The notes under the pieces were generated by a model, which saw nothing but the letters and a program-made list of their open reading frames with translations, was not told the DNA's origin and searched no databases. The position numbers and the translations under genes are program-made. From NCBI GenBank assembly GCA_028712895.1, contig JAQTPL010000006.1, forward strand, positions 239 to 64,238: a stretch of DNA of 64,000 bases, given 5' to 3'. The DNA comes from a bacterium (GTDB lineage: Bacteria; CAYTYR01; UBA6262). Each line of letters starts with the position of its first letter. Position 1 is the stretch's first letter. Positions 8,382 to 53,075 of this stretch are shown here, piece after piece.

Positions 8382-10343
8382 TTATTCGTACCGTAATGCT
8401 TCGATCGGGTCAAGCTTGGCTGCCTGGCGCGCTGGCCAGATCCCGAAGCCGACACCTACGGCTATGGAAAACGTGGTTGCCATTATTACCGAAGACATAG
8501 AAACCGTAGTCGTCCAACTGGTGAAGGCAGACAAGGTAAACGCGATCCCTGCCCCAACCGCAATACCGATCAATCCGCCGGTCACGGTCATCACCACTGC
8601 TTCGATCAAAAATTGGGTCATAATATCCTTGGAACGGGCGCCGATGGCTTTACGCAATCCTATTTCTTTGACCCGCTCCCGGACCGACACCAGCATAATA
8701 TTCATAATACCAATACCGCCGACCAGCAGGGAAATAGCCGCGATAGAACCTAACAGCATGGTCATGGTCTTGGTGGTGCTTTGCACGGTTTCCTGAATAT
8801 CATTCATATTCCTGATCTCAAAAGAATCTTCTTTATCCTGACTCAGGAGATGTCGCTGGATAACTAATGTTTTGATCGATTCCTGGGCAGCATCCATCAA
8901 ATTAGCACTTTTTACTTCGAGGTCAATATAATCCACATATTCCTTACCTAATACCCGGTACATAGCTGTGGTAACCGGAATAACGATCACATCATCCTGG
9001 TTCATCCAGCCGGTCGATCCTTTAGTAGGCAATACCCCGATAACCTTGAAATATATCCGGTTGATCTTGACTGTCATTCCTACCGGATTAGCGGTATCAA
9101 ATAACTCCTTAGCTACAGTTGAGCCGATCAAGGCGACTTTTTGGCGCACTTGTAATTCTTCAGCGGTAAAGAACCTGCCGACTGTCGGTATCGCCGCGCG
9201 CATAGTCGGGTAATTGACCCCGGTACCTAAGATCTGGGTATTCCAGTTCCGGTCACCATAAACCACTTGGGCTCGGCCCCTGACTGTCGGGGAAACATTT
9301 TTTATTTCCGGCAGTTTAGCCAGGTATTCAGCGTCTTGCAGGGTGAACCTGGTTACTGACCCTGCTTCCACGGCTACACCCATTGACCGGTGTGAACCAG
9401 GAGTGACCATTAATAAATTAGAACCTAAGGAAGCCAGGCTTTTTTCTATTGATTCTTTGGCTCCCTGTCCCAGAGCTAACATGGCAATGACGGCAGCTAC
9501 CCCGATCAGGATCCCCAGCATGGACAACATAGAACGCATTTTATGGGAAACCAGGGCTTGCAGGGCTTGCCTGAAATGATCACCGAATTTGGCCCCATCT
9601 ACCTTAGACTCGCTTTCTTTGTCAGCCGATCCTGTAGTCAATTGTTCTGCTAGCTGTGCAGCAGCCAGACCTGACTTAGTTTTTTCATCAGTAACTATTT
9701 TCCCGTCGCGCATATAAATTATCCGTTTGGTCCGTTCCGCGACTTCTTTTTCATGGGTTACCATGACTATGGTTTTCCCTTGCTTATTCAGTTTGAGCAG
9801 GAGAACCATGATCTCTTCTTCATTTTTAGTATCCAGGTTCCCGGTCGGCTCATCGGCAAAAAGGATCAAAGGATCATTGACCATGGACCGGGCAACGGCG
9901 ACCCGCTGCTGTTCCCCACCAGACAGCTCAGTCGGCAAATGCAGGGCCCGGGATTCAAGTCCGACCTCTTTTAATTTTTCCAGGGCCCTTTCTTTCAGGT
10001 GCCGCCGGCCGGCATAGATCAAGGGCAGTTCAGCGTTGCCCAGCGCAGTGAGACGGGCCAAGAGGTGAAATTGCTGGAAGATAAAACCTGCTGTCTTATT
10101 CCTTAGCATAGCTAATTCATCATCATTGTACTTGCTGACTTCTTTATTGTTAAAAGTATACTCTCCGGAATCGGGACGGTCCAGCAGCCCGAGAATATGC
10201 AGCAAGGTGGATTTCCCGGAGCCAGACGGTCCCATTATAGCGACAAATTCCCCGGCTTCAATATTTAGAGAAACTCCGCGCAGGGCTTGTACCCCCACAC
10301 TGCCGATCTGATATGTTTTAGAGATATTTTTTACTTTTATCAT
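8382..10343 (-). CDS. macB: MacB-type ABC transporter (fused ATPase and FtsX permease)
   Basis: Walker A 'GPSGSGKST', ABC signature 'LSGGEQQR', Walker B 'ILFADEPTGNLD', then a large periplasmic domain and four FtsX-type TM helices. Confidence 0.9.
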   Translation of the reverse strand: MIKVKNISKTYQIGSVGVQALRGVSLNIEAGEFVAIMGPSGSGKSTLLHILGLLDRPDSGEYTFNNKEVSKYNDDELAMLRNKTAGFIFQQFHLLARLTALGNAELPLIYAGRRHLKERALEKLKEVGLESRALHLPTELSGGEQQRVAVARSMVNDPLILFADEPTGNLDTKNEEEIMVLLLKLNKQGKTIVMVTHEKEVAERTKRIIYMRDGKIVTDEKTKSGLAAAQLAEQLTTGSADKESESKVDGAKFGDHFRQALQALVSHKMRSMLSMLGILIGVAAVIAMLALGQGAKESIEKSLASLGSNLLMVTPGSHRSMGVAVEAGSVTRFTLQDAEYLAKLPEIKNVSPTVRGRAQVVYGDRNWNTQILGTGVNYPTMRAAIPTVGRFFTAEELQVRQKVALIGSTVAKELFDTANPVGMTVKINRIYFKVIGVLPTKGSTGWMNQDDVIVIPVTTAMYRVLGKEYVDYIDLEVKSANLMDAAQESIKTLVIQRHLLSQDKEDSFEIRNMNDIQETVQSTTKTMTMLLGSIAAISLLVGGIGIMNIMLVSVRERVKEIGLRKAIGARSKDIMTQFLIEAVVMTVTGGLIGIAVGAGIAFTLSAFTSWTTTVSMSSVIMATTFSIAVGVGFGIWPARQAAKLDPIEALRYE

Positions 10344-11341
10344 TGTCTTGTATTCCTGTTTGTCTGATTCCGTTGGCTCCTCTGGCCTGGCCGGGTTGGC
10401 ATAAAAGGATTACCACTAGTGGCTTTCTGGGTAGCTGGCATATAGGTCGCGCTTTGTATAACCACCCTATCAGTATCAGTGAGCCCGGAAATAATTTCAG
10501 TATTAGTGTCATCAGCTAAACCGGTTTGAATGCGGCGCTGCCCCGGTTTCTGCTCTTTACCCTGGTCAATGAGGACATATTTCCCTTCTTTGTCTTGCTT
10601 GATTGCTTCCAAAGGTAAAGTCAACACATTCTCGTGACTGGCTTCCAAAACTTTTACTTCAGCAGTCATACCGGAACGGAATTCTGCCGGCACTCTATCC
10701 GGTAAGACATCTACTTTATAGATACTGACGTTACTGACTACCTGTGATTCATAATAAATATGGTTCACCGTGCCATTCACTTTGATATCTGGATAAGCAT
10801 CCAGAGTAATTGTCGCCGGTTGTCCCATCTTAATCTTGCCAATATCAGTCTCATCAAACTGGGCTTGCACGATCAGCCGGTCAGAAAGTACCAGTATCGC
10901 TTCGCTGGTCATAATCGTCTGTCCCGGCTCGACACTTTTGACGATCACTTCCCCGTCGATCGGCGCGATCAAGGGAGTTGACTTATAAACTTCTTGCCAC
11001 TGTTTGACAACTTCATCTCCCTGGGCTCGGGCGGCATCTAATAATGCCGCTCTTTCGGTCGAGCTCATCCAAGCGAGGGTTTGTCCTTTTTTTACCCGGT
11101 CACCTTCCTGCACCAGGATGTTTTCTACTCGCCCGCTGATCGCCGGTTTTACTTCCAGTCGATTTTGCGGCAAGACCGTCCCGGTGGTAGATACGAATGT
11201 TTGGATGTTGTCGTATACCGGATTAACGATGGTAGTTTTTTCCAGACTGTCCTTATTGTTCCCGGCTTTTACGGCCCAGAATATAGCGGCAATCACCACT
11301 AATATGCCTAATACTATGAGTTTCCATTTTTTACTCTTCAT
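10340..11341 (-). CDS. macA: MacA/HlyD-family periplasmic adaptor (membrane fusion protein)
   Basis: N-terminal TM anchor followed by lipoyl/beta-barrel adaptor architecture; translationally coupled to macB and tolC. Confidence 0.8.
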   Translation of the reverse strand: MKSKKWKLIVLGILVVIAAIFWAVKAGNNKDSLEKTTIVNPVYDNIQTFVSTTGTVLPQNRLEVKPAISGRVENILVQEGDRVKKGQTLAWMSSTERAALLDAARAQGDEVVKQWQEVYKSTPLIAPIDGEVIVKSVEPGQTIMTSEAILVLSDRLIVQAQFDETDIGKIKMGQPATITLDAYPDIKVNGTVNHIYYESQVVSNVSIYKVDVLPDRVPAEFRSGMTAEVKVLEASHENVLTLPLEAIKQDKEGKYVLIDQGKEQKPGQRRIQTGLADDTNTEIISGLTDTDRVVIQSATYMPATQKATSGNPFMPTRPGQRSQRNQTNRNTRQ

Positions 11342-12596
11342 CTAAAGTCACTCCTTTGGCTTGTATCCAGTTCGCTTCTGCTATCATGGCGTTGGCCTGG
11401 GTATTTAATAAGGTTTTTTTGGCATTGATCAAATCATCTTCAATAATGATCCAGTTGTCAAAAGACATTAACCCGATCTTATATTGTGCTTCAGCGATCT
11501 TGGACCGCTCTTCAGTGGCGATCAAGAATTTTTGCTGTACCTCTAATTGTCCCAATGCATCCCGCAGATTGGCCCAGTTTTCAGCCAGAGTAAGAATAAC
11601 GCTTGCACGGCCGTTTCTTTCTTCGGCCTGTGCCTGGCTATACGCTGATTCAGACCTTTTTACAGCCGCTACCTGGCTGCCTCCGGAAAAGATCGGCACG
11701 CTCACATTTACTCCGGCTGACCATTGGCTCCGGTCAGGAGGCCAATTTGAACCGCTCTTACTGGTTGAGGCGCTGGCATAAACCGAAGGATACATATCAG
11801 CGGTAGCGCCTTTTAAAGAAAGGCGGGAGGCATCTTTTTGGGCGATCAGAGCTTGTAGCAAAGGAACTGATCCTGCTAATTGTTCAAAATCAGGTGTCAC
11901 CGGGTCCAGCAAAGATACTGCCAGCTCACCTTGTACTTGTATCTGGCTATATTTGCCATAGCCCAGGTCCGCGCAGAGCATCCGGGCAGCTATTTCTAAA
12001 TTCCTAGTGGCTTGGGCAATTTCAAACTCAGCTTCTGCCAGGTCAGCCTGCGCTGTTAGTAATGAACCTTTATGCTCACGTCCTGCTTCATACCCCAGCT
12101 TGATCAGCTCCAGGCTTTGTTTACGCCGTTGTGCTATTTCAGTGGTTATAGCTACTAACTTCTGCGCTTTCAAAAGATTCACAAAATCTTTCTTCAGCTG
12201 CAGCCGCAAGTTGGAAGAAGTCACAGCATATGAATATACTGCTGACCGGAAAGTCGCGGAAGAAGTAGCGACATTATACTGGGATTTCAAACCGTCAAAG
12301 ATCAATTGCCTGCCGGAAACACCGTAAGAATAGCTATTGTTCCGGTCCTGATCATCTGCTTTTGAAGTTTGGCCGCTCGCGCTGCCGCTTATTTGCGGAT
12401 AATAGTTGCTCTTAGACGTGGTTATATTAATCCCGGCTTGCTTCAATTTCTCAGTCGCCGACAATAAATTGGGATTATTTTGCCTGGTCTCGCGGACACA
12501 ATCTGCCCAAGTCAGGTCTTGGGACACAGCGCTGTTAACAGAGCCCAATATACTTATAGACACCATCAATAATATTATAAAGAAGTTTCTTTTCAT
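11331..12596 (-). CDS. tolC: TolC-family outer-membrane channel
   Basis: Signal peptide and two repeats of the TolC helical/beta pattern over 421 aa. Confidence 0.8.
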   Translation of the reverse strand: MKRNFFIILLMVSISILGSVNSAVSQDLTWADCVRETRQNNPNLLSATEKLKQAGINITTSKSNYYPQISGSASGQTSKADDQDRNNSYSYGVSGRQLIFDGLKSQYNVATSSATFRSAVYSYAVTSSNLRLQLKKDFVNLLKAQKLVAITTEIAQRRKQSLELIKLGYEAGREHKGSLLTAQADLAEAEFEIAQATRNLEIAARMLCADLGYGKYSQIQVQGELAVSLLDPVTPDFEQLAGSVPLLQALIAQKDASRLSLKGATADMYPSVYASASTSKSGSNWPPDRSQWSAGVNVSVPIFSGGSQVAAVKRSESAYSQAQAEERNGRASVILTLAENWANLRDALGQLEVQQKFLIATEERSKIAEAQYKIGLMSFDNWIIIEDDLINAKKTLLNTQANAMIAEANWIQAKGVTLDEE

Positions 12597-12626
12597 ACTG
12601 CTTTAACCACCTTTTAAAATTTGGGA

Positions 12627-13124
12627 TTATGGCTCTGGCGGCCCTTCATGCCTTTCCTTGCCGGGTTGGTCCGGCGGCGGGGTCATAAAACCCCTGGGCA
12701 TGATCGCTTTAAACTTCCGCTGTTGTTCCGGGGTCAGGTTCTTTTTCATGGTCACTAAATGCCCGACGATCGTTTTTTCGATTTTTGCCTGCAGAGAGGA
12801 AATAGCGTCAATTAATTTGTCTACCTTGACGCTGTCGACCGGATCGGTATCCAGCAGGGCAAACAATTCCGCTCGTTTTCTTTTCAATTCTTCCCTGGCC
12901 GATTTGATCTCCTGGTTTATATTTTTCCGGTCCTGCTCCATAAATTCGACCTGGGTATTGGTCAAATTAAGCTCTTTTTTTATTTTCTTTTTAAACCAGT
13001 TGTTCTCGCCCGGCCCTTTTTTAAAATCCCGCCGGATGAGCCAATGGCGACTGAACGTCGCCACTACCCCCAGGTTTAAACCCAGCGAGAGAACTAAAAT
13101 AACAGTCAGTACTTTATTTTTCAT
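12627..13124 (-). CDS. CpxP/Spy-family periplasmic chaperone or heavy-metal sensor (LTXXQ)
   Basis: Signal peptide and two LTXXQ motifs ('LNLTNTQV', 'NLTPEQQ'). Confidence 0.6.
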   Translation of the reverse strand: MKNKVLTVILVLSLGLNLGVVATFSRHWLIRRDFKKGPGENNWFKKKIKKELNLTNTQVEFMEQDRKNINQEIKSAREELKRKRAELFALLDTDPVDSVKVDKLIDAISSLQAKIEKTIVGHLVTMKKNLTPEQQRKFKAIMPRGFMTPPPDQPGKERHEGPPEP

Positions 13125-15127: not shown

Positions 15128-18100
15128 TTAATCGGTGGAATCGTTCCTTCTAAATTTTTGTTCAAAAATTGTATACAGTACCGGCACAAAGATCAAAGTG
15201 ATCAGTGTCGACACCGTCAGTCCGCCAATGAGAGCTACGCCCATAGGTGCCCACGACTCGCTGCCCTCGCCCCGGGAAAAGGCCATGGGCACTAAACCAA
15301 ACAAAGTAGTGATCGTCGTCATTAATACAGGACGCAAACGGCTCTTACCGCCTTTTTGCACCGCTTCAAACAACTCAATGCCCCTGGCGCGCAGGATATT
15401 GATATAATCCACCAAGACAATGGCATTATTCACTACAATACCTACCAGCATGATCAATCCCAGGAAAGTCATGACATTGAAGCTTAATCCTGCAACCAAC
15501 AGCCCCCAAATAACCCCGGTGATAGCAAAAGGCACGGAAAACATAATGATGAACGGGTCGCGCAGGGATTCAAATTGGGCCGCCATGATCAAATATACTA
15601 ATAATATTCCTAAAATAAACGCGAAGAAAAGATCAGTGAATGAAGACTTCTGCTCTTTGATCGTACCACCGAATTTATAGGTAAAACCGCGGGGCATGAC
15701 CTTTTTCTGCAGCAGATTCTCTACATCAGTAGTGATCTCCCCCAGACTCCGGCCATAGGTACCTGCATCTATCCGGATCATTCTTGATCCGTCTTTACGC
15801 AATATTTCCAATGGGCCATATTGCCGTTCAAGCGTAGCCACATTACCCAATGGTATAGCTTTACCAGATGGCAGGAGGATCGGCAAATTAAGCAGATTGG
15901 CTAAACTGGTGCGTTCTTTCTTATTCAAGTTCATAAATATATCATATTCATCATCCTGGTCACGAAACTTGCTGACCGTAATACCATAGAAAGTCCCGCG
16001 TACAATATTAGCGATATAACCCACTGACAGGCCCAGGCTGGTAGCTTTGTCCCGATCCACCCGCACCCAGACCTCAGGATTGCCTTGTTCAAAGCTAACT
16101 TCTATATCTTTTACTCCCTTAATTTTAGCCATCATCCCCGAGATCTGGTCTGATAGCTCTGCTCCCTTAGCCAGATCATCCCCATAGAGTTCGATAGTTA
16201 AGGGTTTGCCGCTGCCCATGATCGCTGCTTCCATCGGGTCCTGGCTGGAAAAATTCACTTTGACTAAACCTGGGATTTTTTCTACTTTAGGCCGAACCGC
16301 TTCAATGATTTCCAGATCACTGCGCTGGCGCTGGTCTTTGGGCACTAATTTGCCGAAGAAATCAGCGGCACTGGACAGTTCTTTGCGTCCGCCTTGTACA
16401 CTGCCCATCGCTTCCCGGCTCTCACCCATATCCACCATCAGCATCCGCAGTTCTTTCACTTCTTCCCGCAGTATCTGCTCGATCTTGGACACAGCTATTT
16501 CTGTTTCATTAACATCGGTCCCTCGGGGCAGCTCTACGCGTAAGCGCAAGAATCCCTGGTCTTCCCGGGGGAAAAACTCTGTCCCCACCAGCGGGAACAG
16601 GAGCAGTGAAAATACAAAAATAGCAATGGCCCCGCCAATCACCTTTTTCCGGTTACTTAAGGCCCAGCCCAGGATCTGCCGGTATTTTTCGTCCAAGCGC
16701 TCAAACCATTTTTCACTCCAGCGAAAAAACCTGTCAACCAGTTTATTACTGTTACTATTACCATTGAGATGGATCGTTTTTTGGCTAAGCATCTTCCCGG
16801 CTAACATCGGGGATAAAGTATAGGCCACAAACAAAGAAGCCATCAAGGTAATGGTTACTATAGCGGCTAATTGTTTGAAATATACCTGTAAAAAACCGCC
16901 GACAAATATTAAAGGTAGAAAAATAACTACTGTGGTCAGGGTAGAACCAAGAATAGCTGCACTGATCTCGCCGGTACCAAAAATGGCTGCTTCCTGTGGC
17001 CTTTCTCCTTCATGTAAATGGCGGTAAATATTATCGATCACCACAATAGCGTTGTCCACGACCATACCAATGGCAATTGCCAGGCTGGCTAATGACAGGA
17101 CATTAATGGTCCAGCCATTAAAGTATACAAAAATAAAGGCTACCAGCAAAGAGGTGGGTATTTCCAGCGCCGCGATAAAACTAGCACGTACATTACGCAG
17201 GAAAAACAGCAAGACCAACACGACTAAGAATCCGCCCCAATAAATAGAGGTTTTCAGGCTGTTGATGGAATTAACAATGAAATCAGAATTATCCATCAGG
17301 ATCTTAACATCCACATCTTTAGGTAAAGTCTGCAGGATAGTTGCCAGCTTGGCCCGCACACCTTTAGCCACAGTCACGGTATTAGAGCCAGACTGTTTTT
17401 GTATTACAATAAAGCCACCGCTTTTCTGGTTGACATGGACCCGTTTTATGGCTTCCTGGAAATCATCCTTTACTTCAGCAATATCACTCACGTAAACGGG
17501 TTTACCCTGTCGGTAAGCCAGCAAGGTTTGGCTTAGTTCCGGCACAGTCGTGTATTCACCGGGAACCCGCAAACTGTATTTCTTCCGGCCTTCATATACA
17601 GAGCCTGCTGGAGTAGTCACATTTTCCTGCTGGATCTTATCAGTCACCTGGCTGAGCGAAAGATTATAAGCATTCATCTTATTAATATCTAAAATAATCT
17701 GGATCTCCCGGATCTTGCCGCCACGGACATAGACTGCACCTACTCCAGGGACAGATCGTAACTTATCAGCGATATCAGTTTCCATGATCTTATTCAGGCG
17801 GTCGTAGCTTTCGGCAGCATTGGCGCCCATAAACAAGATCGGTATGGCGCTGGTATTGAACTTAATGACCCGGGGCGCATCAGCATCATCCGGCAATCTA
17901 CTTTTAACAAATTCCAGGCGATCCCGGATATCATTACTGGCTGTATCCAGGGAAGTGCCCCAGTCAAACTTGGCTAAGACCACGGAAGCGCCTTCTTTAG
18001 AAGTGCTTTCCACAGAATCTATACCCGGAACGGTGCGCACAGCATCTTCAATAGTCTTGGTAACCTTGGTTTCAATATCCTGGGCATTGGCTCCAGGATA

Positions 18101-18250
18101 GGAGGTAATAACAGTCAGCATGGGCAAGGTGATCTCCGGCATCAAGTCCACCGGTAGCTTAGCCAAAGAGATAAAAGATAAGATTAACAGGACTACATAA
18201 ATGATACTAGTAAAGATTGGACGCTTTACACAATACTCTGTAAGCTTCAT
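15128..18250 (-). CDS. RND efflux permease (AcrB/HAE1-like)
   Basis: The 1040-aa protein has 12 TM segments and two large periplasmic loops; its N-terminus ('LPVDLMPEITLPMLTVITSYPGANAQDIE') resembles AcrB. Confidence 0.9.
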   Translation of the reverse strand: MKLTEYCVKRPIFTSIIYVVLLILSFISLAKLPVDLMPEITLPMLTVITSYPGANAQDIETKVTKTIEDAVRTVPGIDSVESTSKEGASVVLAKFDWGTSLDTASNDIRDRLEFVKSRLPDDADAPRVIKFNTSAIPILFMGANAAESYDRLNKIMETDIADKLRSVPGVGAVYVRGGKIREIQIILDINKMNAYNLSLSQVTDKIQQENVTTPAGSVYEGRKKYSLRVPGEYTTVPELSQTLLAYRQGKPVYVSDIAEVKDDFQEAIKRVHVNQKSGGFIVIQKQSGSNTVTVAKGVRAKLATILQTLPKDVDVKILMDNSDFIVNSINSLKTSIYWGGFLVVLVLLFFLRNVRASFIAALEIPTSLLVAFIFVYFNGWTINVLSLASLAIAIGMVVDNAIVVIDNIYRHLHEGERPQEAAIFGTGEISAAILGSTLTTVVIFLPLIFVGGFLQVYFKQLAAIVTITLMASLFVAYTLSPMLAGKMLSQKTIHLNGNSNSNKLVDRFFRWSEKWFERLDEKYRQILGWALSNRKKVIGGAIAIFVFSLLLFPLVGTEFFPREDQGFLRLRVELPRGTDVNETEIAVSKIEQILREEVKELRMLMVDMGESREAMGSVQGGRKELSSAADFFGKLVPKDQRQRSDLEIIEAVRPKVEKIPGLVKVNFSSQDPMEAAIMGSGKPLTIELYGDDLAKGAELSDQISGMMAKIKGVKDIEVSFEQGNPEVWVRVDRDKATSLGLSVGYIANIVRGTFYGITVSKFRDQDDEYDIFMNLNKKERTSLANLLNLPILLPSGKAIPLGNVATLERQYGPLEILRKDGSRMIRIDAGTYGRSLGEITTDVENLLQKKVMPRGFTYKFGGTIKEQKSSFTDLFFAFILGILLVYLIMAAQFESLRDPFIIMFSVPFAITGVIWGLLVAGLSFNVMTFLGLIMLVGIVVNNAIVLVDYINILRARGIELFEAVQKGGKSRLRPVLMTTITTLFGLVPMAFSRGEGSESWAPMGVALIGGLTVSTLITLIFVPVLYTIFEQKFRRNDSTD

Positions 18251-19143
18251 TGCCCGACCTCTACTTTCGACCCATCACGCAGGTTATCCTGGCCAACGAC
18301 CACGATCTGTTCTCCTACTTTCAAACCAGCGGTGATCTCAATATCGCTTTCTTGTATTAAGCCGGTCCGGACCTGGCGTTTGGCTGCTGCCCGGCCATCA
18401 CTGACATAGACAAAACTATTCTCTTGTTCTTTTATAACTGCTTCAATTGGGACCAGGATACCTTGATAGGCTTTTTCAATAATCCGTCCTTTGGCAAACA
18501 TGCCGGTTTTGAGTTTTCTTTCCTTATTATCTATCCTGATATTCACTTCAGCAGTCCTGGTATAAGGATCGATCTTCGCCTGAACCATGTCTACTAAACC
18601 GGTAAATTCCTGTCCAGGATAGGCATCGACTTTTACTTGAGCCTCATCGTTTTTTTTGATCCGATGAAGGTCTTTTTCGGGAATATTGGCTACTACCTTA
18701 ATAATACTGGTATCAGCAACTGTGCCCAGGGAATCCTTCGGTTCGATTTTAGCCCCCAAATCTACCAGGTATCCGGTAAAAACACCGCTGATCGGAGCAG
18801 TAATCTCTACTTCCTTATAATCCATAGCTGGTTCGTCCCGGTCCAATAGGGCTATGGTTTGACCGGTTTTAACTATGGCTCCTTCATCCACTACTTTCTT
18901 CAGAAGTTTTCCTGAAACTTTGGGGTAAATGTTCGCTTCATTGAGACCGCGTATTTCGCCAACAAAATTTACCAGGGACGCGATATTGCCAACCTGTACG
19001 GTCGCCAGATGCACCGGGATAACAACTTCTTGTACGACCAGGTTTCTCTCGCTTCTTTTCCGCTGGATCAACTGCACCAGGCGATACCCGGCAATGAGCG
19101 CCAGGATAATAACGATGCTAATTATTATTCTTTTTATTTTCAT
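18247..19143 (-). CDS. RND periplasmic adaptor (membrane fusion protein)
   Basis: TM anchor followed by biotinyl/lipoyl-like and beta-barrel MFP domains; overlaps the pump gene by 4 bp. Confidence 0.85.
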   Translation of the reverse strand: MKIKRIIISIVIILALIAGYRLVQLIQRKRSERNLVVQEVVIPVHLATVQVGNIASLVNFVGEIRGLNEANIYPKVSGKLLKKVVDEGAIVKTGQTIALLDRDEPAMDYKEVEITAPISGVFTGYLVDLGAKIEPKDSLGTVADTSIIKVVANIPEKDLHRIKKNDEAQVKVDAYPGQEFTGLVDMVQAKIDPYTRTAEVNIRIDNKERKLKTGMFAKGRIIEKAYQGILVPIEAVIKEQENSFVYVSDGRAAAKRQVRTGLIQESDIEITAGLKVGEQIVVVGQDNLRDGSKVEVGQ

Positions 19144-19178
19144 TTTCTTCCCCCTGTATTTAAATAGCTTTACGAAAA

Positions 19179-20501
19179 CTACTTTAATGTTTCGCCGATA
19201 ACCTTCTCTACTTTGGCCTGGGCCATGATATATTCGTAGGTCGCCTGGTAATAATTAATTTCTGCCTGGGTCAGGGTTAACTCAGCATCCCGCACTTCGA
19301 TATCGCTCATTAACCCCAGCTTATACCGCTCCTGGGCAATGCGCAGATTATCTTTAGCCGTATCTACATTCTCGCCTTGTCCGGCAATATTATCTTTAGC
19401 CTGGGCCAGGGTAAAATAAGCTTGTTTTACTTCGATCTTTATGCTGTCAATTAATTGGTCCTTGGTTAAGCGCACTTGTTCTTTTTGCGATTTAGCCTGG
19501 TCGATCCTGGCCTTAGTGGCAAATCCCTCAAATAAAGGAATAGTCAAAGAAACCGTAGTCGTCCAGCTGTTGGTCCAAGCCAGGTCAGCTCCGAACCCGG
19601 AAGAGTTTTGCCTGGAAGCAACCGAATTTAACAGTAAATTCGGCCAATGGCCGCTCTGGGCCAGCAACACTAGACTGTTAGCTGCTTCTTCTTGCAGCAG
19701 TAATTGCCGCACTTCTATCCTTTTACCCAAAGCCTGGTTCAAACCTGTTTCATAATCCTGCACTGATTTTTCCACATAATCAAGCTGGCCAACAAACTCT
19801 ATTTCCTGTGCCGGCTCTAATCCTAATATATTAATCAAGGCATCGACATTTATTTTTAAATTATTTTGCGCTTTGATCAAACTGGTTTTCTGGTTGGCTA
19901 ATTGCACTTTTACGCGACTCACATCATAATTAGACATCTTGCCTTCATTATATAAAGCATGGCTGACTTTCAGATGTGCCGCTACCACTTCATAGGCTTC
20001 CTGGTTGATCCGCACCATTTGCTGGGCCAGCAAGACAGTGTAAAAGCTCTGTTTCACCTGGTATAACAAGTCATCTCTTTGCTTTAAATAATCCCAGTTA
20101 ACTAATTGCATCCCGATATCTGCCTGGCGGTTAGATTGGTAGATCTTGCCACCCATAAATAGCGGTTGAGTTAAGCTTAACTTACCGAGATATGAATCCC
20201 TCGCTCCCAGGGGGAGTTCAGTACCAGCGAAATTTACCATATTTATCTTATGGTTGTAAATATATGCTCCCATGGCGCTGATATTGGGCCAATAGCTGCC
20301 CGCTGCCTCAATTTTTTTGGCTCTGGCATTATTGGTTTTTTCCTGGAAGAGCAGCAACTGCTTATTATTGGCCAAAGCAGTTTTAATACATTCATCCAAA
20401 CTCAGGCTTCTCTGCTGGGCTTGAACCTTGCCGGCTGATCCAACAAATCCCGCTACCAAAACCAGGATTATTAAGCTAATTAAATATTTGTTGAAATTCA
20501 T
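19179..20501 (-). CDS. TolC-family outer-membrane efflux protein
   Basis: Signal peptide and duplicated OEP repeats over 440 aa. Confidence 0.8.
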   Translation of the reverse strand: MNFNKYLISLIILVLVAGFVGSAGKVQAQQRSLSLDECIKTALANNKQLLLFQEKTNNARAKKIEAAGSYWPNISAMGAYIYNHKINMVNFAGTELPLGARDSYLGKLSLTQPLFMGGKIYQSNRQADIGMQLVNWDYLKQRDDLLYQVKQSFYTVLLAQQMVRINQEAYEVVAAHLKVSHALYNEGKMSNYDVSRVKVQLANQKTSLIKAQNNLKINVDALINILGLEPAQEIEFVGQLDYVEKSVQDYETGLNQALGKRIEVRQLLLQEEAANSLVLLAQSGHWPNLLLNSVASRQNSSGFGADLAWTNSWTTTVSLTIPLFEGFATKARIDQAKSQKEQVRLTKDQLIDSIKIEVKQAYFTLAQAKDNIAGQGENVDTAKDNLRIAQERYKLGLMSDIEVRDAELTLTQAEINYYQATYEYIMAQAKVEKVIGETLK

Positions 20502-21294: not shown

Positions 21295-21831
21295 TTGCCG
21301 GCTAAATTCAAAGGATATGCCTTGACTAGTTCAGCAGTCCGCAGAGTTCTTGTTGCCTTATTTTTCTTAAGCCTGCCTTGTGCCCTTTGGGCTGTACCAT
21401 TGACTGTAATTCCCGCTTTACCTGAAGCTACAACCCCAGTTTTCGTCAGCACCTCTACGATCACCTTACCTATCCCGCAAAGCCAGGAATTACCGGATAG
21501 GACTATGTGGCGCAAAAATCCTTTCATGCCTCTTTTGGGTATAACCTTCGCACAAAAAACCAAGGCCAAAGCACCGGTAAGCGGCCCCTCTGATGTCGTG
21601 CAATTGCGGGATATGGAACTTATCGGCATTGTGAAAGACGCAATAGAATACTCGGGTATATTCAGGAATACCATGACCGGTAAAATATATATTACCCAGC
21701 AAAGCAAATTAATAGATAAAAGAAAAAGAACCATTAAAAATATCAGTGTTGGTTATATTGATGAAAACAGCGTTTTAATGAACGACGGGAAACAGGAAAC
21801 GAGTTACCGGCTCAGGAAAGCAGGAGAATGA
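21295..21831 (+). CDS. pilP: PilP-like pilus/secretin-associated protein. TTG start with an AGGAGG Shine-Dalgarno sequence; the track ORF begins at 21271.
   Basis: N-terminal membrane anchor and a C-terminal beta domain ('ELIGIVKD...GIFRN..TGKIYITQQSKLID...ISVGYIDENSVLMNDGK') resembling PilP; it immediately precedes the secretin gene. Confidence 0.5.
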   Translation: MPAKFKGYALTSSAVRRVLVALFFLSLPCALWAVPLTVIPALPEATTPVFVSTSTITLPIPQSQELPDRTMWRKNPFMPLLGITFAQKTKAKAPVSGPSDVVQLRDMELIGIVKDAIEYSGIFRNTMTGKIYITQQSKLIDKRKRTIKNISVGYIDENSVLMNDGKQETSYRLRKAGE

Positions 21832-23414
21832 AAAAACAATTGGTTCTCATAATCATAGGTTGTATCCTGTGTCTAGGGGTAGGCACACCATTCCACTTGG
21901 CTGCTGCTGAAGCAAACCAGGCAATTTTACAATCTATTTCTACCAAAGTAGAATCGTCCGTATTTAAAGTCTTCCTGAAAATATCCGGGCCGGTGACACC
22001 TAAGGATTTTGTAAAGGCTGATCCTGATCCAAAATTAGTGCTCGATCTTATTAATACCAGGAATGCCTCTGATTTTAAGAAGATGAAAGTGAATCTAAGC
22101 CCGATCCTGTATCTCCGTGCAACGCAATACAAGATCACTCCGCAGCCAATCACCAGGGTGGTGCTTGACCTGACGGCAACGCCAGCCTATGAGATCAAAA
22201 CATCAGCAGACGGATTAGAGATCAATGTCACGCTTGACCAGGATAACACTATGGCTACTGACCCGGCAGCAGCTCAAATTCCACCAGAAACAACTAATCC
22301 CAGACTATTTTCCTTTGATTTTGAAAACGCCGACGTTAAAGATGTCCTCTATGCTTTAGGCTTAAAAAAAGGCATCAATATAATTATCGATGAAGATGTC
22401 ACCGGCCAGATAAGTATCAGTTTAAATAATATTTCGTTTGAAGATTCCCTGGATACGATCCTGAAGATAAAAAGCCTCTCCCTGACCAAGATCAGCGATC
22501 AGGTCATCAGAATCTCTAAAAAAGAAAAAGCTGACCTGGTCACTACTTTCGTGCAGCTCAAGTTTGGCCGGGCTGAAGACACTGCTCCCTTGGTCACCCC
22601 ATTACTTTCAGGAAAAGGGAATATCCAGGTAGATAAACGCACCAATAGCCTCTTGATCACTGATGCTTTGAATAATATCCAGGTAATAACCGATGCGCTC
22701 AGCAAAATGGACCTTAAGCCAAATGTAGTTGAGATCAAAGCTGAGATCGTGGAAGTAGATACAAACGCCTTACGAGAACTGGGAATTAGCTGGACTGCAG
22801 CCAAAGAAGCAAATCCCCCTACGGGAACTGGTATGACTTATAATGCTGCTCAGTCGTTGGGCAATTTAAGTATTAATCTTGGCACGGTGATCGATAAAGT
22901 GCAGGTTAATGCCACTCTCAGCATGCTGGGCCAGAAAGGAAAGAGCAAACTGCTTTCTTCTCCCAGCATTACGACTGTTGACAATCAGCCAGCCAAGATT
23001 ATAGTCGGTGATAAAGTTCCTTATGAAAAGAAAACTATCTCCAGCTCCGCGGCGGGGGAGACTGCGACAGAGTCCACAATAGAGTTCCTTGATATTGGCA
23101 TCAAGCTCGAAGTTACCCCGACCATAAACATCCATAAGCAAATTACCATGAAGATTAGACCAGAAGTAAGTTCTTATACCCCCTCTACTCTCGGGCCAAT
23201 CGTACATACCAGGGAAGCAGAGACCACGATCATGGTCAACAACGGAGAAACCATCGTCATCGGGGGCTTAATGAGTGAAACCGATACTGATACTATCCAG
23301 GCGGTGCCCTTTGTCGGAGATATTCCTATTTTAGGCTGGCTGTTTAAAAAGGCCACTAAAAACACTGATAAGACTGAATTGCTGATCTTTATTACTCCGC
23401 GTTTGATAGAGTAA
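21828..23414 (+). CDS. pilQ: Type IV pilus / type II secretion secretin (PilQ-like, with AMIN domain)
   Basis: Signal peptide, an AMIN-like N-domain, N0/N1 domains, and the secretin C-domain ('VPFVGDIPILGWLFK...ELLIFITPRLI'). Confidence 0.85.
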   Translation: MKKQLVLIIIGCILCLGVGTPFHLAAAEANQAILQSISTKVESSVFKVFLKISGPVTPKDFVKADPDPKLVLDLINTRNASDFKKMKVNLSPILYLRATQYKITPQPITRVVLDLTATPAYEIKTSADGLEINVTLDQDNTMATDPAAAQIPPETTNPRLFSFDFENADVKDVLYALGLKKGINIIIDEDVTGQISISLNNISFEDSLDTILKIKSLSLTKISDQVIRISKKEKADLVTTFVQLKFGRAEDTAPLVTPLLSGKGNIQVDKRTNSLLITDALNNIQVITDALSKMDLKPNVVEIKAEIVEVDTNALRELGISWTAAKEANPPTGTGMTYNAAQSLGNLSINLGTVIDKVQVNATLSMLGQKGKSKLLSSPSITTVDNQPAKIIVGDKVPYEKKTISSSAAGETATESTIEFLDIGIKLEVTPTINIHKQITMKIRPEVSSYTPSTLGPIVHTREAETTIMVNNGETIVIGGLMSETDTDTIQAVPFVGDIPILGWLFKKATKNTDKTELLIFITPRLIE

Positions 23415-48095: not shown

Positions 48096-49436
48096 CTAAT
48101 TCTTTTCTTTTAAGATACGGACCAGGGTGTCGATCTCGGCTTTGGTTCTTTTTTCAGTGACGCAGAATAATAATGACTTTTTAAGTTCCGGATAATATTT
48201 TTTCAACGGTAAACCGCCGATTATATTTTTTCTTAACAGCTTTTTATTCAAGGCCTCTATATTCCCGGGCGCTGTGGCTACAAATTCATTAAAAAAAGCA
48301 GTTTTAAAATTAATTTTCCAGCCTGGTATCCTGGCTACAGCAGCAGCCAGATAATGGGCTCCGGACAAAGAGGCAGTAGCCACATCTTTTAAGCCGGCAG
48401 CACCCATAGAGGAGAGATAAACACAAGCACTTAACGCGCATAAAGCCTCATTGGAACAGATATTACTGGTAGCTCGTTCACGGGGGATATGCTGTTCCCT
48501 GGTCTGTAAGGTCAGCACATAAGCACGTTGTCCCCTGTTGTCAATACTTTCTCCTACTATCCGTCCAGGCATTTTGCGCATGAATTCCTGGCGGCAGGCA
48601 AAAATTCCCAAGTACGGCCCGCCAAAAGAAACCGGTAGTCCCAATGATTGCCCTTCACCCGTAACGATATCAGCGCCGTATTCTGCCGGTTTTTGTAAAA
48701 CACCCAGGCTAACCGGGTAAATGCTGGTGACAAACAAGGCTCCCTGCTTATGGGCCATGGCCCCCAGCTGCTGGACATGTTCCAGGCAGCCGAAAAAATT
48801 CGGCTGCTGCACAACAACAGCTGCCACCTGGTCATTTAACTGGCTTTTCAAGGCAGCCAGGTCGATCAGACCTTCAATAAAAGGTATTTCCTTAATGCTA
48901 ATCCGTGAATTTTTTAAATATGTATGCACTACCTGGCGGTATTCCGGGTGAATGGCCTTAGCCACCAGGACTATATTCCTCTGGGTATGCTCACAAGCCA
49001 GGTGAATTGCCTCATAAAGCGCCGTGGCGCCATCATAGAGGCTGGCATTAGCTACGTCCATCCCGGTCAGGTTACAGATCATCGTCTGGTATTCAAAGAT
49101 CGATTGCAAGGTGCCTTGGCTTATTTCCGGCTGATAAGGAGTATACGCAGTATAAAATTCCCCCCGTTTGGTAATCACCGGTACAGTGCTGGGAATATAA
49201 TGATCATAAGCACCTGCACCTAAAAAACAGCTAAAGTCGGCTACACTGGCGTTTTGACCGGCTACTTCCCGTAGCTGCTTTTTAACTTCCAACTCACTGC
49301 CAGCAGGTGGTAACGCTAAACAGTGGCGAATGATCTTATCTTGCGGAATATCCTTCAAAAGATCTTCTGTTGAAGCTATGCCTAACGCCTGCAACATATC
49401 CTTATTATCAGCATCGGTATTGCCTATATAGTCCAT
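48096..49436 (-). CDS. gcvPA: Glycine dehydrogenase (decarboxylating) subunit 1
   Basis: A 446-aa protein colinear with GcvPA. Confidence 0.9.
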   Translation of the reverse strand: MDYIGNTDADNKDMLQALGIASTEDLLKDIPQDKIIRHCLALPPAGSELEVKKQLREVAGQNASVADFSCFLGAGAYDHYIPSTVPVITKRGEFYTAYTPYQPEISQGTLQSIFEYQTMICNLTGMDVANASLYDGATALYEAIHLACEHTQRNIVLVAKAIHPEYRQVVHTYLKNSRISIKEIPFIEGLIDLAALKSQLNDQVAAVVVQQPNFFGCLEHVQQLGAMAHKQGALFVTSIYPVSLGVLQKPAEYGADIVTGEGQSLGLPVSFGGPYLGIFACRQEFMRKMPGRIVGESIDNRGQRAYVLTLQTREQHIPRERATSNICSNEALCALSACVYLSSMGAAGLKDVATASLSGAHYLAAAVARIPGWKINFKTAFFNEFVATAPGNIEALNKKLLRKNIIGGLPLKKYYPELKKSLLFCVTEKRTKAEIDTLVRILKEKN

Positions 49437-49438
49437 AA

Positions 49439-49828
49439 CTACTTAGATCCCTCACTGATTAACTTTTCATATTCTTCCGCGGACAGCAAGCTAGATAATT
49501 CCGTGGGAGCAGCTAAAGCTATTTTAATCATCCAGCCGTTAGTGTATGGTTCTTTATTGACCAATTCAGGCTGCTTGCCCAAAGCCTCATTGACACTGAC
49601 CACCATACCGCTGACCGGACTGAACAGATCACTGACCGCTTTTACGCTTTCAGCCACGCCAAAAGATTCTTGCTGTTTCAATTGTCGTTCTACCTTGGGT
49701 AATTCAACAAAGACGATGTCTCCCAGTTCTTCCTGGGCATAATCAGTAATGCCGATTACTATTGTATTATTGCCCACCGCTTTTACCCATTCATGGGATT
49801 TGCTGTATTTCAAGTCCTTTGGAACCAT
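49439..49828 (-). CDS. gcvH: Glycine cleavage system H protein
   Basis: Lipoyl-lysine region 'ESVKAVSDLFSPVSG'. Confidence 0.9.
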   Translation of the reverse strand: MVPKDLKYSKSHEWVKAVGNNTIVIGITDYAQEELGDIVFVELPKVERQLKQQESFGVAESVKAVSDLFSPVSGMVVSVNEALGKQPELVNKEPYTNGWMIKIALAAPTELSSLLSAEEYEKLISEGSK

Positions 49829-49860
49829 TAAAACCTCCGGTATTAGCTTATTGCTCTTAG

Positions 49861-49928
49861 CTCATAGGTCGTAGGAAAATCTACTGATTTCTTTTTTTTC
49901 CTGCGAGCTACCAGCTACGAGCTACGAA
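49861..49928. repeat. Intercistronic inverted repeat (CTCATAGGTCGTAGG / GCTACGAGCTACGAAC) in the gcvT-gcvH spacer
   Basis: GAGCTAYGA-family arms separated by a T-rich stretch. Confidence 0.45.
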
Positions 49929-49936
49929 CTGATTTA

Positions 49937-51037
49937 TTAGTCGCGAACATGGCTGGGGACAAAAGGCGTTTTTACTATTGTTGCCGGATATTTTTCTCCC
50001 CTGATCTCGATATTCAGCTTATTATCTAATGCAGCTTCAGCTAATCTGATATATCCCAGGCAAATACTTTTAGCCAAGGTTGGGGAAAATGTCCCGCTGG
50101 TAACCTGACCTACTATCTTCCCGTCTTGGTTAAAGATATGGAATCCATGGCGAGCGATCTGCCGGCCTTGCATGGTCAGACCAGCCAGCTTGCGTGATAG
50201 CCCGGCCTTTTTTATTTGTTCCAGGCTGGTCTTGCCAATAAAATTATCCTTCTCCAATTTTACTGCCCAGTCCAACCCAGCTTTTAGCGGATTAGTATCC
50301 TGGTCAATATCATTTCCGTACAGGGAATATTTCATTTCCAACCGCAAAATATCCCTGGCTCCCAAACCACAGGGGATGGCTCCCTGGTCAATAATGCTTT
50401 GCCAGATTTTTTCTGTATCTGGCTCCGGTTCAGGCTGGGCAAAATAAAATATTTCATAGCCTAGCTCTCCGGTATATCCGGTACGGGAAATAGTCACTGG
50501 CTTGCCGGCGACCTGCCCCTTAGCAAAATGCAAATAATCCAAAACGGCAATCTCTGGCCCGGCCAGTTTGACCATGATATCCCTGGCGCCAGGACCCTGC
50601 AGCGAAATCAGTGAAGTGCTTTCGGAAATATCATTCAACATCACATCATAAAAACTTTTTTGTTCCATCAGGTACTGGTAATCTTTTTCTGTATTCGCGG
50701 CATTTACCACCAATAGATAATTATGCCGGCTGATCTTATTAATGAACAAGTCGTCCACAATGCCGCCGTGATCATAACACATGAGACTGTAAAGACAATC
50801 TCCCGGCGCCATTACTGACACATCATTGGTCATTACCTGCTGCAGAAATTTTTCCGCCTGGTCACCGATAACGGTGATCTCTCCCATATGACAAATATCA
50901 AAGAGACCGGCTTTTTTCCGTACTGCCCAATACTCATCGATAATACTGCTATATTGCACCGGCATCAACCACCCGCCAAACTCAATCAAGCGGGCTTTAT
51001 GCTGCTGGTGCCAATGATAAAGTTTAGTTTGTTTCAA
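49937..51037 (-). CDS. gcvT: Glycine cleavage system T protein (aminomethyltransferase)
   Basis: A 366-aa protein colinear with GcvT. Confidence 0.9.
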   Translation of the reverse strand: MKQTKLYHWHQQHKARLIEFGGWLMPVQYSSIIDEYWAVRKKAGLFDICHMGEITVIGDQAEKFLQQVMTNDVSVMAPGDCLYSLMCYDHGGIVDDLFINKISRHNYLLVVNAANTEKDYQYLMEQKSFYDVMLNDISESTSLISLQGPGARDIMVKLAGPEIAVLDYLHFAKGQVAGKPVTISRTGYTGELGYEIFYFAQPEPEPDTEKIWQSIIDQGAIPCGLGARDILRLEMKYSLYGNDIDQDTNPLKAGLDWAVKLEKDNFIGKTSLEQIKKAGLSRKLAGLTMQGRQIARHGFHIFNQDGKIVGQVTSGTFSPTLAKSICLGYIRLAEAALDNKLNIEIRGEKYPATIVKTPFVPSHVRD

Positions 51038-51966
51038 TCCTGGAAATCCCCGATCCCCCGCCCTTTGAATAAGGCGATATCAACGACCACGCTGACAAAT
51101 GTGGTTCTTAAGGCCATTTTACTGAGCGCGATCGCTTTGATCAGCACTTTCCGTTTCTTAGGCATTTTTTTAAGTAACGCCGCCAGGTTTCTAGCCTCAG
51201 GGAAAACCTGGTAATTGGGAATAAAAATCAAAAACGCTTCAATATTAAATCCCTGGTAAATTTCTACCAGATTGGCCAGATCCAACTGGGCCCTGAGAGG
51301 ATAGTTATCATCAAAAACATTTTCCAGGCTGAAAGGATGATGTTTCACTGTTTTTAAAACATCCGTTAATCCGGCGAGAAAAAGGCGGGCATTTTCCTGT
51401 TCTCCTTCGGGATATAAAATGCCAACTTTGACTTCATCTTCCTTCGGCACCAGTAACTCTTCCGGCAAATCTTTTTCCTTTTTCAGATACATCGGCTGGA
51501 TCCGGCCGACTTCCAGGGGAATCGGTTCCTCAGTCTCCTGGCCGGGCATCCTGATATCCCCGGGCAAAACAACATTCTTATGCTTGAGCGCTTCTTTGGC
51601 TTCAGCTTTACTGATCCCGCGATCGGATAAATCCTTGATCACCCCGCCAATTTCCCGGGCCAGGTTATCAGCTCTTTCCGGTGCGCCTGTTTTCTTTTTT
51701 GCCTCTGGTAATTCCTGGGCGTCAGCCACGGAAAGCCGCTTCATGAATTTTTCTACTTCCAACCGGGTTTCTTTACTGGACGTATTCAGATAAAAACCCC
51801 AATTATAATCGCCGCGAGCAGCTTTGAGTTGAAAAGGAGGCTGACAAACTTTCTCAAATTTTCCCACCACCCTAAGAACATCTTCACGATCCCCATTAAT
51901 CGATACCAGGTAGCGGTCCTGGTGTTTGTCGTCAAAATAAGATTCTATTTTCCAGCGGATAATCAT
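51034..51966 (-). CDS. Hypothetical protein. Its N- and C-terminal domains are paralogous to the termini of the DnaA-like protein at 44693-46528; it follows pilT.
   Basis: N-terminus 'MIIRWKIESYFDD...INGDREDVLRV...DYNWGFYL' versus '[15 protein letters not shown]...[11 protein letters not shown]...DYNWSFYI'. C-terminus 'VGILYPEGEQE...' versus '[11 protein letters not shown]...'. The start overlaps the pilT stop (ATGA). Confidence 0.5.
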   Translation of the reverse strand: MIIRWKIESYFDDKHQDRYLVSINGDREDVLRVVGKFEKVCQPPFQLKAARGDYNWGFYLNTSSKETRLEVEKFMKRLSVADAQELPEAKKKTGAPERADNLAREIGGVIKDLSDRGISKAEAKEALKHKNVVLPGDIRMPGQETEEPIPLEVGRIQPMYLKKEKDLPEELLVPKEDEVKVGILYPEGEQENARLFLAGLTDVLKTVKHHPFSLENVFDDNYPLRAQLDLANLVEIYQGFNIEAFLIFIPNYQVFPEARNLAALLKKMPKKRKVLIKAIALSKMALRTTFVSVVVDIALFKGRGIGDFQD

Positions 51967-53075
51967 TATTTATCCCTCTTGCTTTGGTTATTATTTTCAT
52001 CAACTCCGGTGTAAATACCCCGAACGCTCAACATGAGTTCATCCGGATTAGTAGCATTATCCAGAGCATCTTCCAGGGAGATCTTCCCTTCTTTGTACAA
52101 ATTTAAAAGCGACAGATCAAATGATTGCATGCCGTAAAAAGCTCCCTGTTGCATAGCGGTATAAATACCGGCATCCTTGCCTTCGGCAATCAATTTTCTG
52201 ACAAAAGGGGTAACTGTCAGGATCTCGATGGCCGGGATCCGGCCTTCCTGATCGACCCGCGGGATCAGACGCTGCGCAATAATACCACGCAGGATCTGGC
52301 TGAGCGTCATTCTGATCTGGGTTTGCTGATGCGGAGAATACATATCAACAATACGGTTGACGGTATGGACAGCATCGATAGTGTGAACCGTGGAAATAAC
52401 CAAGTGCCCGGTTTCTCCCCCCATAATAGCGGCATTGACTGTTTCAAAATCTCTCATTTCCCCGATCACGATGACATCCGGGTCCTGGCGCAAGACATGT
52501 TTCAGCGCCTGGCCGAAAGACTTGGTATCGCTGCCCACTTCCCGCTGGCTGACCGTGCTCATTTTATCATTATGATAAAACTCAACGGGATCCTCGATCG
52601 TAATAATATTAGAGCGGCGGGTGGAATTAATAAAATCGATCATAGTGTTTAGGGTAGTAGTTTTACCGGCACCGGTAATCCCGGCAATCAAAATAAGACC
52701 GCGGTTATGGCTGGTTATTTTACGCATCGTTTCGCTGGGCAGGTTTAATTCTTCAAAGGTTTTAGGCGAGGGAGGAATAACCCGCAAACTTAACGCGATC
52801 CCGCCTTTTTGCCGGTATAAGTTGACCCGAAAACGAGATACTCCCTCTACTTCGTAGCCAAGGTCTAGTTCATCATCTTTCTCGAATTTTTTTTGTTGTT
52901 TCTCATTCATCAGGTTATAGGCCAGCTGTTCGATATTCTCGCTGGTTAAAGGACTGGATTCAGCAGCCATTAGTTTACCATTAAACCGCAGCATAGGAGG
53001 ACTGCCTGCTTTGAAGTGAATATCTGAGATACTGCGTTTGACCATCAGTTGCAAGAGATCGTCAACATTCATCAT
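51966..53075 (-). CDS. pilT: Type IV pilus retraction ATPase PilT
   Basis: Walker A 'GITGAGKTTT', the PilT-specific 'AIRNLIREGK'-like region 'FVRKLIAEGK', and the His box; 369 aa. Confidence 0.9.
   Translation of the reverse strand: MMNVDDLLQLMVKRSISDIHFKAGSPPMLRFNGKLMAAESSPLTSENIEQLAYNLMNEKQQKKFEKDDELDLGYEVEGVSRFRVNLYRQKGGIALSLRVIPPSPKTFEELNLPSETMRKITSHNRGLILIAGITGAGKTTTLNTMIDFINSTRRSNIITIEDPVEFYHNDKMSTVSQREVGSDTKSFGQALKHVLRQDPDVIVIGEMRDFETVNAAIMGGETGHLVISTVHTIDAVHTVNRIVDMYSPHQQTQIRMTLSQILRGIIAQRLIPRVDQEGRIPAIEILTVTPFVRKLIAEGKDAGIYTAMQQGAFYGMQSFDLSLLNLYKEGKISLEDALDNATNPDELMLSVRGIYTGVDENNNQSKRDK

Follow-up and report, generated by a model that had tools for sequence, protein, structure and literature searches.

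DnaA is among the most uniform of bacterial proteins, and to our knowledge its layout of domain III with domain IV is treated as universal. The canonical domain III is an ATP-binding module that oligomerises and arranges itself along single-stranded DNA. Paralogues that are truncated or have no ATPase can, as a general principle, regulate their full-length relatives; we know of no specific described example in which a DnaA-type ATPase has such a partner. Here we describe a DnaA-type ATPase and an ATPase-less paralogue of it in a 64,000-nucleotide stretch of bacterial DNA (assembly GCA_028712895.1, contig JAQTPL010000006.1, positions 239 to 64,238 of the forward strand), hereafter the window, in whose coordinates features are given. 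One partner is a DnaA-like protein in which a DnaA-family ATPase stands between two other domains; the second, X, is an ATPase-less protein that shares both of those domains. The two form a conserved paralogue pair in an uncultured clade labelled mostly Elusimicrobia by NCBI. Their parts come from known superfamilies, and what is new is the domain layout and the dedicated ATPase-less paralogue. Searches of the literature yielded no description of a fusion of DnaA with MID, a domain of Argonaute proteins, of such a paralogue pair or of an unusual DnaA in Elusimicrobia.

The closest described relative is DnaA itself (TIGR00362; PF00308 with PF08299; PDB 8btg, 2z4r and 1l8q). The DnaA-like protein has a full domain III with its lid but lacks domain IV, and so could not bind DnaA boxes by the known route. 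Domain I is also absent, and unrelated N- and C-terminal domains stand in place of I and IV. Unlike dnaA, its gene lies beside neither dnaN nor any sign of an origin, and it has an ATPase-less paralogue. Hda (or HdaA), the DnaA-related inactivator, is likewise a DnaA-family AAA+ protein without domain IV, and both it and the DnaA-like protein would act on initiation, if the latter does so at all, by means other than DnaA-box binding. Hda, however, is a bare, diverged AAA+ protein of ~230 amino acids with a clamp-binding motif, whereas the ATPase described here stays close to the canonical form and has an additional domain on each side. The C-terminal domain resembles the MID domain of Argonaute and Piwi proteins (PDB 4p1z, MIWI MID; 3lug and 7c6b, human Ago2 MID; 1yvu, Aquifex Ago), but no PIWI domain is attached to it, the pocket for the 5' phosphate of the guide is not evidently conserved and its own motifs differ. 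Finally, X would fit the principle of regulation by an ATPase-less paralogue: it keeps what we propose to be targeting and pairing domains, has no motor and is encoded beside the full-length gene. A regulatory role for X is what we infer from this likeness.

A DnaA ATPase between unrelated domains

The DnaA-like gene (44693-46528, minus strand) encodes 611 amino acids. From its N-terminus the protein comprises an N-domain homologous to that of X (residues 1-85; 46274..46528), DnaA domain III consisting of the AAA+ core plus lid (138-380; 45389..46117), an acidic, Pro-rich disordered linker (381-487; 45068..45388) and a basic, MID-like C-domain (488-611; 44696..45067). Judged by its sequence, the ATPase is a genuine DnaA domain III. 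Bac_DnaA (PF00308) matches residues 143-304 with 238 bits in Pfam, the NCBI DnaA equivalog TIGR00362 scores 372.9 bits against a cut-off of 343.9, and the Bacillus subtilis DnaA structure 8btg is found in the PDB with 380 bits. In agreement with the PDB result, the ATPase is 62% identical over 242 residues to B. subtilis DnaA. All of Walker A, Walker B (LLIDDVQF), the arginines of box VII and sensor II can be seen, and they do not vary. The Hda equivalog TIGR03420 reaches 112.6 bits, below its cut-off of 194.8, and other Hda models fall far below theirs.

The match to TIGR00362 covers only model positions 83-349 of 437, which indicates that domains I and IV are missing. No domain I was found in the DnaA-like protein, and the Pro-rich linker follows the lid at the point where domain IV would be expected to start. 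Pfam detects no domain IV (PF08299, Bac_DnaA_C) in the window protein or in any of the 26 ATPase-carrying family members tested. As a control, we built a domain-IV hidden Markov model (HMM) from canonical DnaA genes; a scan of a genome collection with exact 8-residue patterns had returned 74 of these, from other phyla, together with six orthologs of the DnaA-like gene. This model matched all 74 control loci; among the open reading frames (ORFs) of the 64-kb window and of the DnaA-like loci it matched none.

Conservation among the orthologs is uneven along the protein, with identities of 88-98% in the ATPase, 58-87% in the N-domain and 31-83% in the linkers. The Pro-rich linker, at 31-73%, holds 22 prolines and 23 aspartates or glutamates in 107 residues and has an isoelectric point (pI) of 4.1, and the C-domain is basic (pI 9.1) within an otherwise acidic protein. 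One ortholog, MBI5554724.1, is named 'chromosomal replication initiator protein DnaA' by NCBI, so that public annotation hides its unusual build. Annotation pipelines give the name DnaA to any good domain III, and the family flags a systematic mis-annotation. The exact 611-residue product is itself not in a collection of 15 billion proteins, which does hold X of the same contig (P0001, NCBI tag PHD29_02395); in the public record the DnaA-like gene may have a different start or be marked in some other way. In one Elusimicrobia metagenome-assembled genome (MAG), the C-domain of the DnaA-like protein is split over two frames (L010:10952-12677, on a contig shared with L134): the main ORF runs to 12619, and a 77-amino-acid ORF at 12447-12677 carries the last helix, either through a frameshift or through an assembly error.

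X and the shared terminal domains

X (51034-51966, minus strand) is a 310-amino-acid protein called from its ORF and backed by 19 homologs. It consists of an N-domain (residues 1-80; 51727..51966), a helix motif, a disordered linker and a MID-like, four-stranded Rossmann C-domain (177-310; 51037..51438). The N-domain is a small alpha+beta sandwich of the order beta-beta-alpha-beta-beta-alpha. The helix motif, LAREIGGVIKDLSDRGISKAEAKEALK (residues ~100-128; 51583..51669), lies within the disordered middle, is nearly invariant across the X family and is its sole X-specific conserved element. Distant X-type proteins without an N-domain start with an equivalent motif, for example VLSELRKVLSDLTKEE. 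An AlphaFold2 model of X is confident for the C-domain (residues 177-302; predicted local distance difference test score, pLDDT, ~85) and fair for the N-domain; the middle is disordered, with helices 100-115 and 120-128 predicted at low pLDDT. X has no significant match in Pfam or NCBIfam, no Walker A motif was found in it, and a PDB sequence search using the X family returned nothing meaningful. Weak matches to DUF4258 (E 0.011) and to a VOC model (E 0.06) were dismissed, both being far below their cut-offs.

The initial annotation of this DNA had proposed that X and the DnaA-like protein align at both ends, and this holds: the peptides it quoted are all present, and BLASTP pairs residues 1-60 of X with 1-61 of the 611-residue protein (32% identity, E 5e-8) and residues 143-301 with 470-610 (E 0.002). 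Stronger evidence came from comparing family profiles built from 15 X homologs and from five DnaA-like orthologs of syntenic loci. Four syntenic loci supplied DnaA-like orthologs. With hhalign, the N-domains of the two families align at E 3.7e-12 (probability 97.6%) and the C-domains at E 2.9e-10 (96.8%), while crossed controls, in which an N-domain was set against a C-domain or the reverse, or the middle against any part, gave E 0.14-0.76. The architecture first described, in which X is an N-domain, a linker and a C-domain and the DnaA-like protein has the same ends around a DnaA ATPase and a Pro-rich linker, extends across the family. The initial annotation also spoke of an AAA+ module inserted into a two-domain scaffold, for which the data fix no evolutionary direction. 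Because the N- and C-domains occupy the places of DnaA domains I and IV, it is at least as likely that a DnaA had its ends replaced and was then duplicated in tandem, with loss of the ATPase from one copy.

The same source found neither terminal domain recognisable, and both can now be partly identified. The N-domain is a small domain of ferredoxin/ACT-like type. The C-domain is MID-type by its fold and probably by distant homology. It has the four-stranded, Rossmann-like topology of a MID domain, and Foldseek independently supports this fold (E 1.4e-4, template modelling score of 0.70 normalised by the target). In the PADLOC library of defence-system models, the C-domain of the window's DnaA-like protein matches PprPIWI at E 1e-6 and further prokaryotic Argonaute models at 8e-5, 1e-4 and 5e-3, and all four matches fall on the MID region of the model; the PprPIWI model matches 12 of 70 family members. 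A PDB sequence search with the C-domain profile gave nothing meaningful, and hhalign of the C-domain family against the MID domain of human Ago2 gave a non-significant probability of 1.5-4.5%. By Pfam, no family member has a PIWI domain, and the C-domain ends the protein.

The Argonaute MID pocket that holds the guide 5' phosphate is lined by Y/H/R, K, Q and K residues (PMC6299218). In a low-confidence global alignment only the glutamine of this pocket lines up, at family position 277, where 49% of members have Q. The first two positions are unconserved in the same alignment, and the Asp or Glu found at position 296 in 98% of members falls on a lysine position. The C-domain family has motifs of its own. 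Strand 1 is followed by a YPxG turn and strand 3 by GPP, KKHKLKF forms a basic patch, and the last helix carries YxYLNLxLD.

Some relatives vary this layout. In one with the same gene order (L006:3635-4348; protein P0018), X has only 237 amino acids and its N-domain is wholly absent; as the stop-to-stop frame measures 243 amino acids, the short N-terminus is not a miscalled start codon. Elsewhere, a DnaA-like gene whose ATPase has diverged strongly is preceded by a gene for a 696-amino-acid, extremely acidic and repeat-rich protein (L093:7577-9667); this protein matches the C-domain weakly at its end (E 1e-4), has no N-domain and is possibly a very long X-type variant. The MAG UBA6262 (GCA_002441095.1), which also holds an ortholog of the DnaA-like protein (L013), encodes a third paralogue of 283 amino acids (L003:10001-10852, contig DJVG01000044.1; P0021). 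Its N-terminal part is unrelated and its C-domain shares 65% identity with the C-domain of the DnaA-like protein; the gene lies within an exopolysaccharide/PEP-CTERM locus (Wzz, Poly_export, ParA-like).

Breadth of the family and gene neighbourhood

To gauge how widely these proteins occur, we scored a profile of the X family and the terminal domains of the DnaA-like proteins against 1.84 billion representative proteins, which returned 137 family representatives at E <= 1e-3. Domain HMMs sort them into two main forms. The ATPase-carrying form (56 representatives, some of them fragments; 500-850 amino acids) has an N-domain, a variable linker, the DnaA ATPase, a Pro-rich/acidic linker and the C-domain. 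The X-like form has no Walker A and measures 240-530 amino acids, often with hundreds of residues of Pro-rich/acidic disordered linker. Pfam recognises the ATPase only, in any family member, and no Pfam model covers the N- or C-domain in any member examined. In word-indexed protein searches, a chimera joining the two terminal domains of the DnaA-like protein matched no more than two C-domain proteins, and an alignment of 66 N-domain sequences found no matches. We took the clade label Elusimicrobia from the titles of NCBI records, two of which read 'uncultured Clostridia' and were taken as automatic mislabels.

A neighbour-joining tree of ATPase modules places 38 family members in one pure clade among the 74 canonical DnaAs. 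A divergent subgroup (27-32% ATPase identity, ~100 bits to Bac_DnaA) and two small groups fall outside the main clade, probably owing to long branches. The window's ATPase is 56-61% identical to DnaA of Bacillota and 55-62% identical to distant members of its own family, and from this equal closeness it follows that the main subfamily has kept the evolutionary pace of a true DnaA. The N-domain is found on either partner or on both. At three loci (L092, L132 and L133) it is on X only, an X with N- and C-domains standing beside a DnaA-like protein with AAA+ and C-domain alone; at many others an X without it, starting with the helix motif, stands beside a DnaA-like protein with N-domain, AAA+ and C-domain. 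The C-domain is the sole part always common to both proteins.

In the window, both genes lie in a compact run on the minus strand. A PilT-family ATPase gene (51966-53075; TIGR01420 at 444 bits, cut-off 319, full length) precedes X. The initial annotation gave the junction of the two as ATGA; it is in fact TAATG, a 1-nucleotide overlap of stop and start, and the junction of X with gcvT is TTGA. The glycine-cleavage operon gcvT-gcvH-gcvPA-gcvPB (46581-51037) separates X from the DnaA-like gene, which is followed by a lipoate-protein ligase-like gene (43881-44687; PF21948), a HAMP-GAF histidine kinase (41888-43894), which is a conserved downstream neighbour of the DnaA-like gene, and a single-domain response regulator (41504-41869). 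The order TIM-RpiB-DeoC-PilT-X-gcvTHP-DnaA-like-LplA-kinase-regulator recurs in six close relatives and in several that are more distant.

The usual order in relatives is shorter, TIM-RpiB-DeoC-PilT-X-DnaA-like-GAF kinase-regulator, with X directly upstream of the DnaA-like gene. We scanned metagenomes with an alignment of seven C-domain sequences and annotated a further 42 loci with custom HMMs. None of them has gcvTHP between the pair, from which we conclude that the operon, together with the ligase-like gene, which occurs only in gcv-carrying loci, is an insertion specific to the window's clade. The earlier statement that the paralogues bracket gcvTHP is thus correct for the window, but describes a derived state. 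Of the 37 informative metagenome loci, 28 have X directly ahead of the DnaA-like gene; in some loci (L010, L117 and L122) two X-type genes stand in tandem. In the window's clade, X has PilT directly upstream at every locus, and the order PilT-X-DnaA-like recurs in 20 of the 42 metagenome loci; the paralogue pair is therefore conserved beside pilT in relatives, a check that the initial annotation had called for. Five loci keep X and the DnaA-like gene without PilT (L110, L111, L114, L125 and L126). In 16 metagenome loci, and also in L008 and L010, the gene that comes directly after the DnaA-like one encodes the GAF kinase.

Other genes of the region were recorded in passing. A lone secretin gene (21828-23414, plus strand; Secretin, Secretin_N, STN) lies ~28 kb from pilT and on the strand opposite to most genes of the window. 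Adjoining outer-membrane efflux systems on the minus strand, one of MacB-type ABC/HlyD/OEP and one of AcrB-type RND/HlyD/OEP (8382-12596 and 15128-20501), fit a cell with two membranes. A 43-codon ORF without family match recurs in the same place in three relatives (L001:5941-6072, L005:1882-2013 and L006:321-452), between an HD-GYP-type gene and bioY in the first two and upstream of TIM in the third, and is probably a conserved small protein.

Possible roles of the pair

We tentatively favour a reading in which X and the DnaA-like protein share a target or form a complex, with X as an adaptor or competitor of the ATPase. A common target or complex is suggested by the domains that the proteins share, by the conserved adjacency of their genes and by the exchange of the N-domain between partners. 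Because X stays beside the DnaA-like gene in loci without PilT, its tighter link appears to be to the ATPase, which points to work on nucleic acids over pilus structure. From its 62% identity to B. subtilis DnaA and its conserved motifs, we assume that domain III of the DnaA-like protein behaves as in canonical DnaA and would bind ATP, oligomerise and align along single-stranded DNA. The MID-like domains would bring both proteins to the same ligand, be it a nucleic-acid end, a nucleotide or each other, and the N-domain may be a pairing module. As adaptor or competitor, X would determine the place or the time of assembly of the DnaA-type ATPase on single-stranded DNA. A further partner, for which PilT is the obvious candidate, could dock at the helix motif of X, and the kinase and response regulator would supply control. 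In our view the ATPase is more likely an accessory to a canonical DnaA than the sole initiator.

Several observations weigh against this proposal. No match in Pfam, NCBIfam or PDB sequences backs any function of the N- or C-domain. The residues of the 5'-phosphate pocket are apparently not conserved, making the binding of nucleic-acid ends doubtful. Three metagenome loci have PilT and the DnaA-like gene without X, and from six both PilT and X are missing, which shows that X is not obligatory. Lastly, the whole region from TIM, RpiB and DeoC onward is syntenic across the clade, and the adjacency of the pair may in part reflect inherited gene order.

A role as the clade's only chromosomal replication initiator is unlikely but has the most to recommend it among the alternatives. 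The MID-like domain would then replace domain IV and find the origin, or a ligand there; X, as a decoy or co-factor without an ATPase, would tune initiation, which the kinase and regulator would couple to a signal. The ATPase passes the cut-off of the NCBI DnaA equivalog, an ortholog bears the name DnaA, and Hda, a known functional offshoot, scores far lower. Constraint on the ATPase among close orthologs is what an initiator would show, its similarity to the canonical DnaA of Bacillota matches that to distant family members, the 38 ATPase modules form one clean clade, and the C-domain is basic. The surroundings of the gene argue otherwise. The window holds no origin signature, with the cumulative GC skew falling steadily across all 64 kb; the gene is packed among its neighbours with almost no intergenic DNA; and it has no dnaN/recF/gyrB neighbourhood. 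In one subclade, moreover, the ATPase has diverged strongly, and splits or frameshifts occur in some members, as in L010. Diverged and broken copies fit a dispensable paralogue better. We regard as improbable, too, a version in which the sole initiator carries MID in place of the DnaA-box reader and chooses its origin through a nucleic-acid end or a small guide-like molecule, with X as decoy or loader.

More doubtful still is that X and the DnaA-like protein are a scaffold or hub of a type IV pilus motor or cell-pole complex, recruiting through their shared ends and with PilT as their working partner. A pilus or pole role had been put forward in the initial annotation as a possibility. What speaks for it is the neighbouring PilT gene: the PilT stop overlaps the X start in the window, and the loci in which PilT is immediately upstream of X, throughout the window's clade and in 20 of 42 from metagenomes, include some very distant ones. 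X-type proteins also have long Pro-rich disordered linkers like those of many bacterial hub proteins, the window contains a secretin gene, and genes from pilM to secretin lie near one relative. But X remains beside the DnaA-like gene in the five loci without PilT, others keep the DnaA-like gene alone, and the pair has no link to any further pilus gene. On reading the sequences and by Pfam, no signal peptide, membrane segment or domain related to pili can be recognised in either protein, and a near-canonical DnaA ATPase joined to a MID-type domain points to nucleic acids, not to pilus mechanics.

Least probable is a nucleic-acid-sensing defence or DNA-processing module akin to prokaryotic Argonaute, in which MID would hold a guide or DNA end and the AAA+ module would be the effector: although the sole sequence-library matches of the C-domain are prokaryotic Argonaute models in a defence-system database, and fold searches agree, Pfam reveals no PIWI, nuclease, TIR or SIR2 partner, the 5'-phosphate pocket (PMC6299218) is not visibly kept, and the genes stand in a stable housekeeping neighbourhood (TIM, RpiB, DeoC), syntenic clade-wide, not in a variable island.

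Together, these data describe a broad family that has escaped description. If its hosts also encode a normal DnaA, the DnaA-like protein and X would represent a new kind of DnaA-derived machine, perhaps assembling together with DnaA or working on single-stranded DNA. Should a normal DnaA be absent, the pair would represent a new way of starting replication. Either way, a MID-type domain would be at work outside Argonaute proteins, and the family defines two domain families that have no Pfam model.

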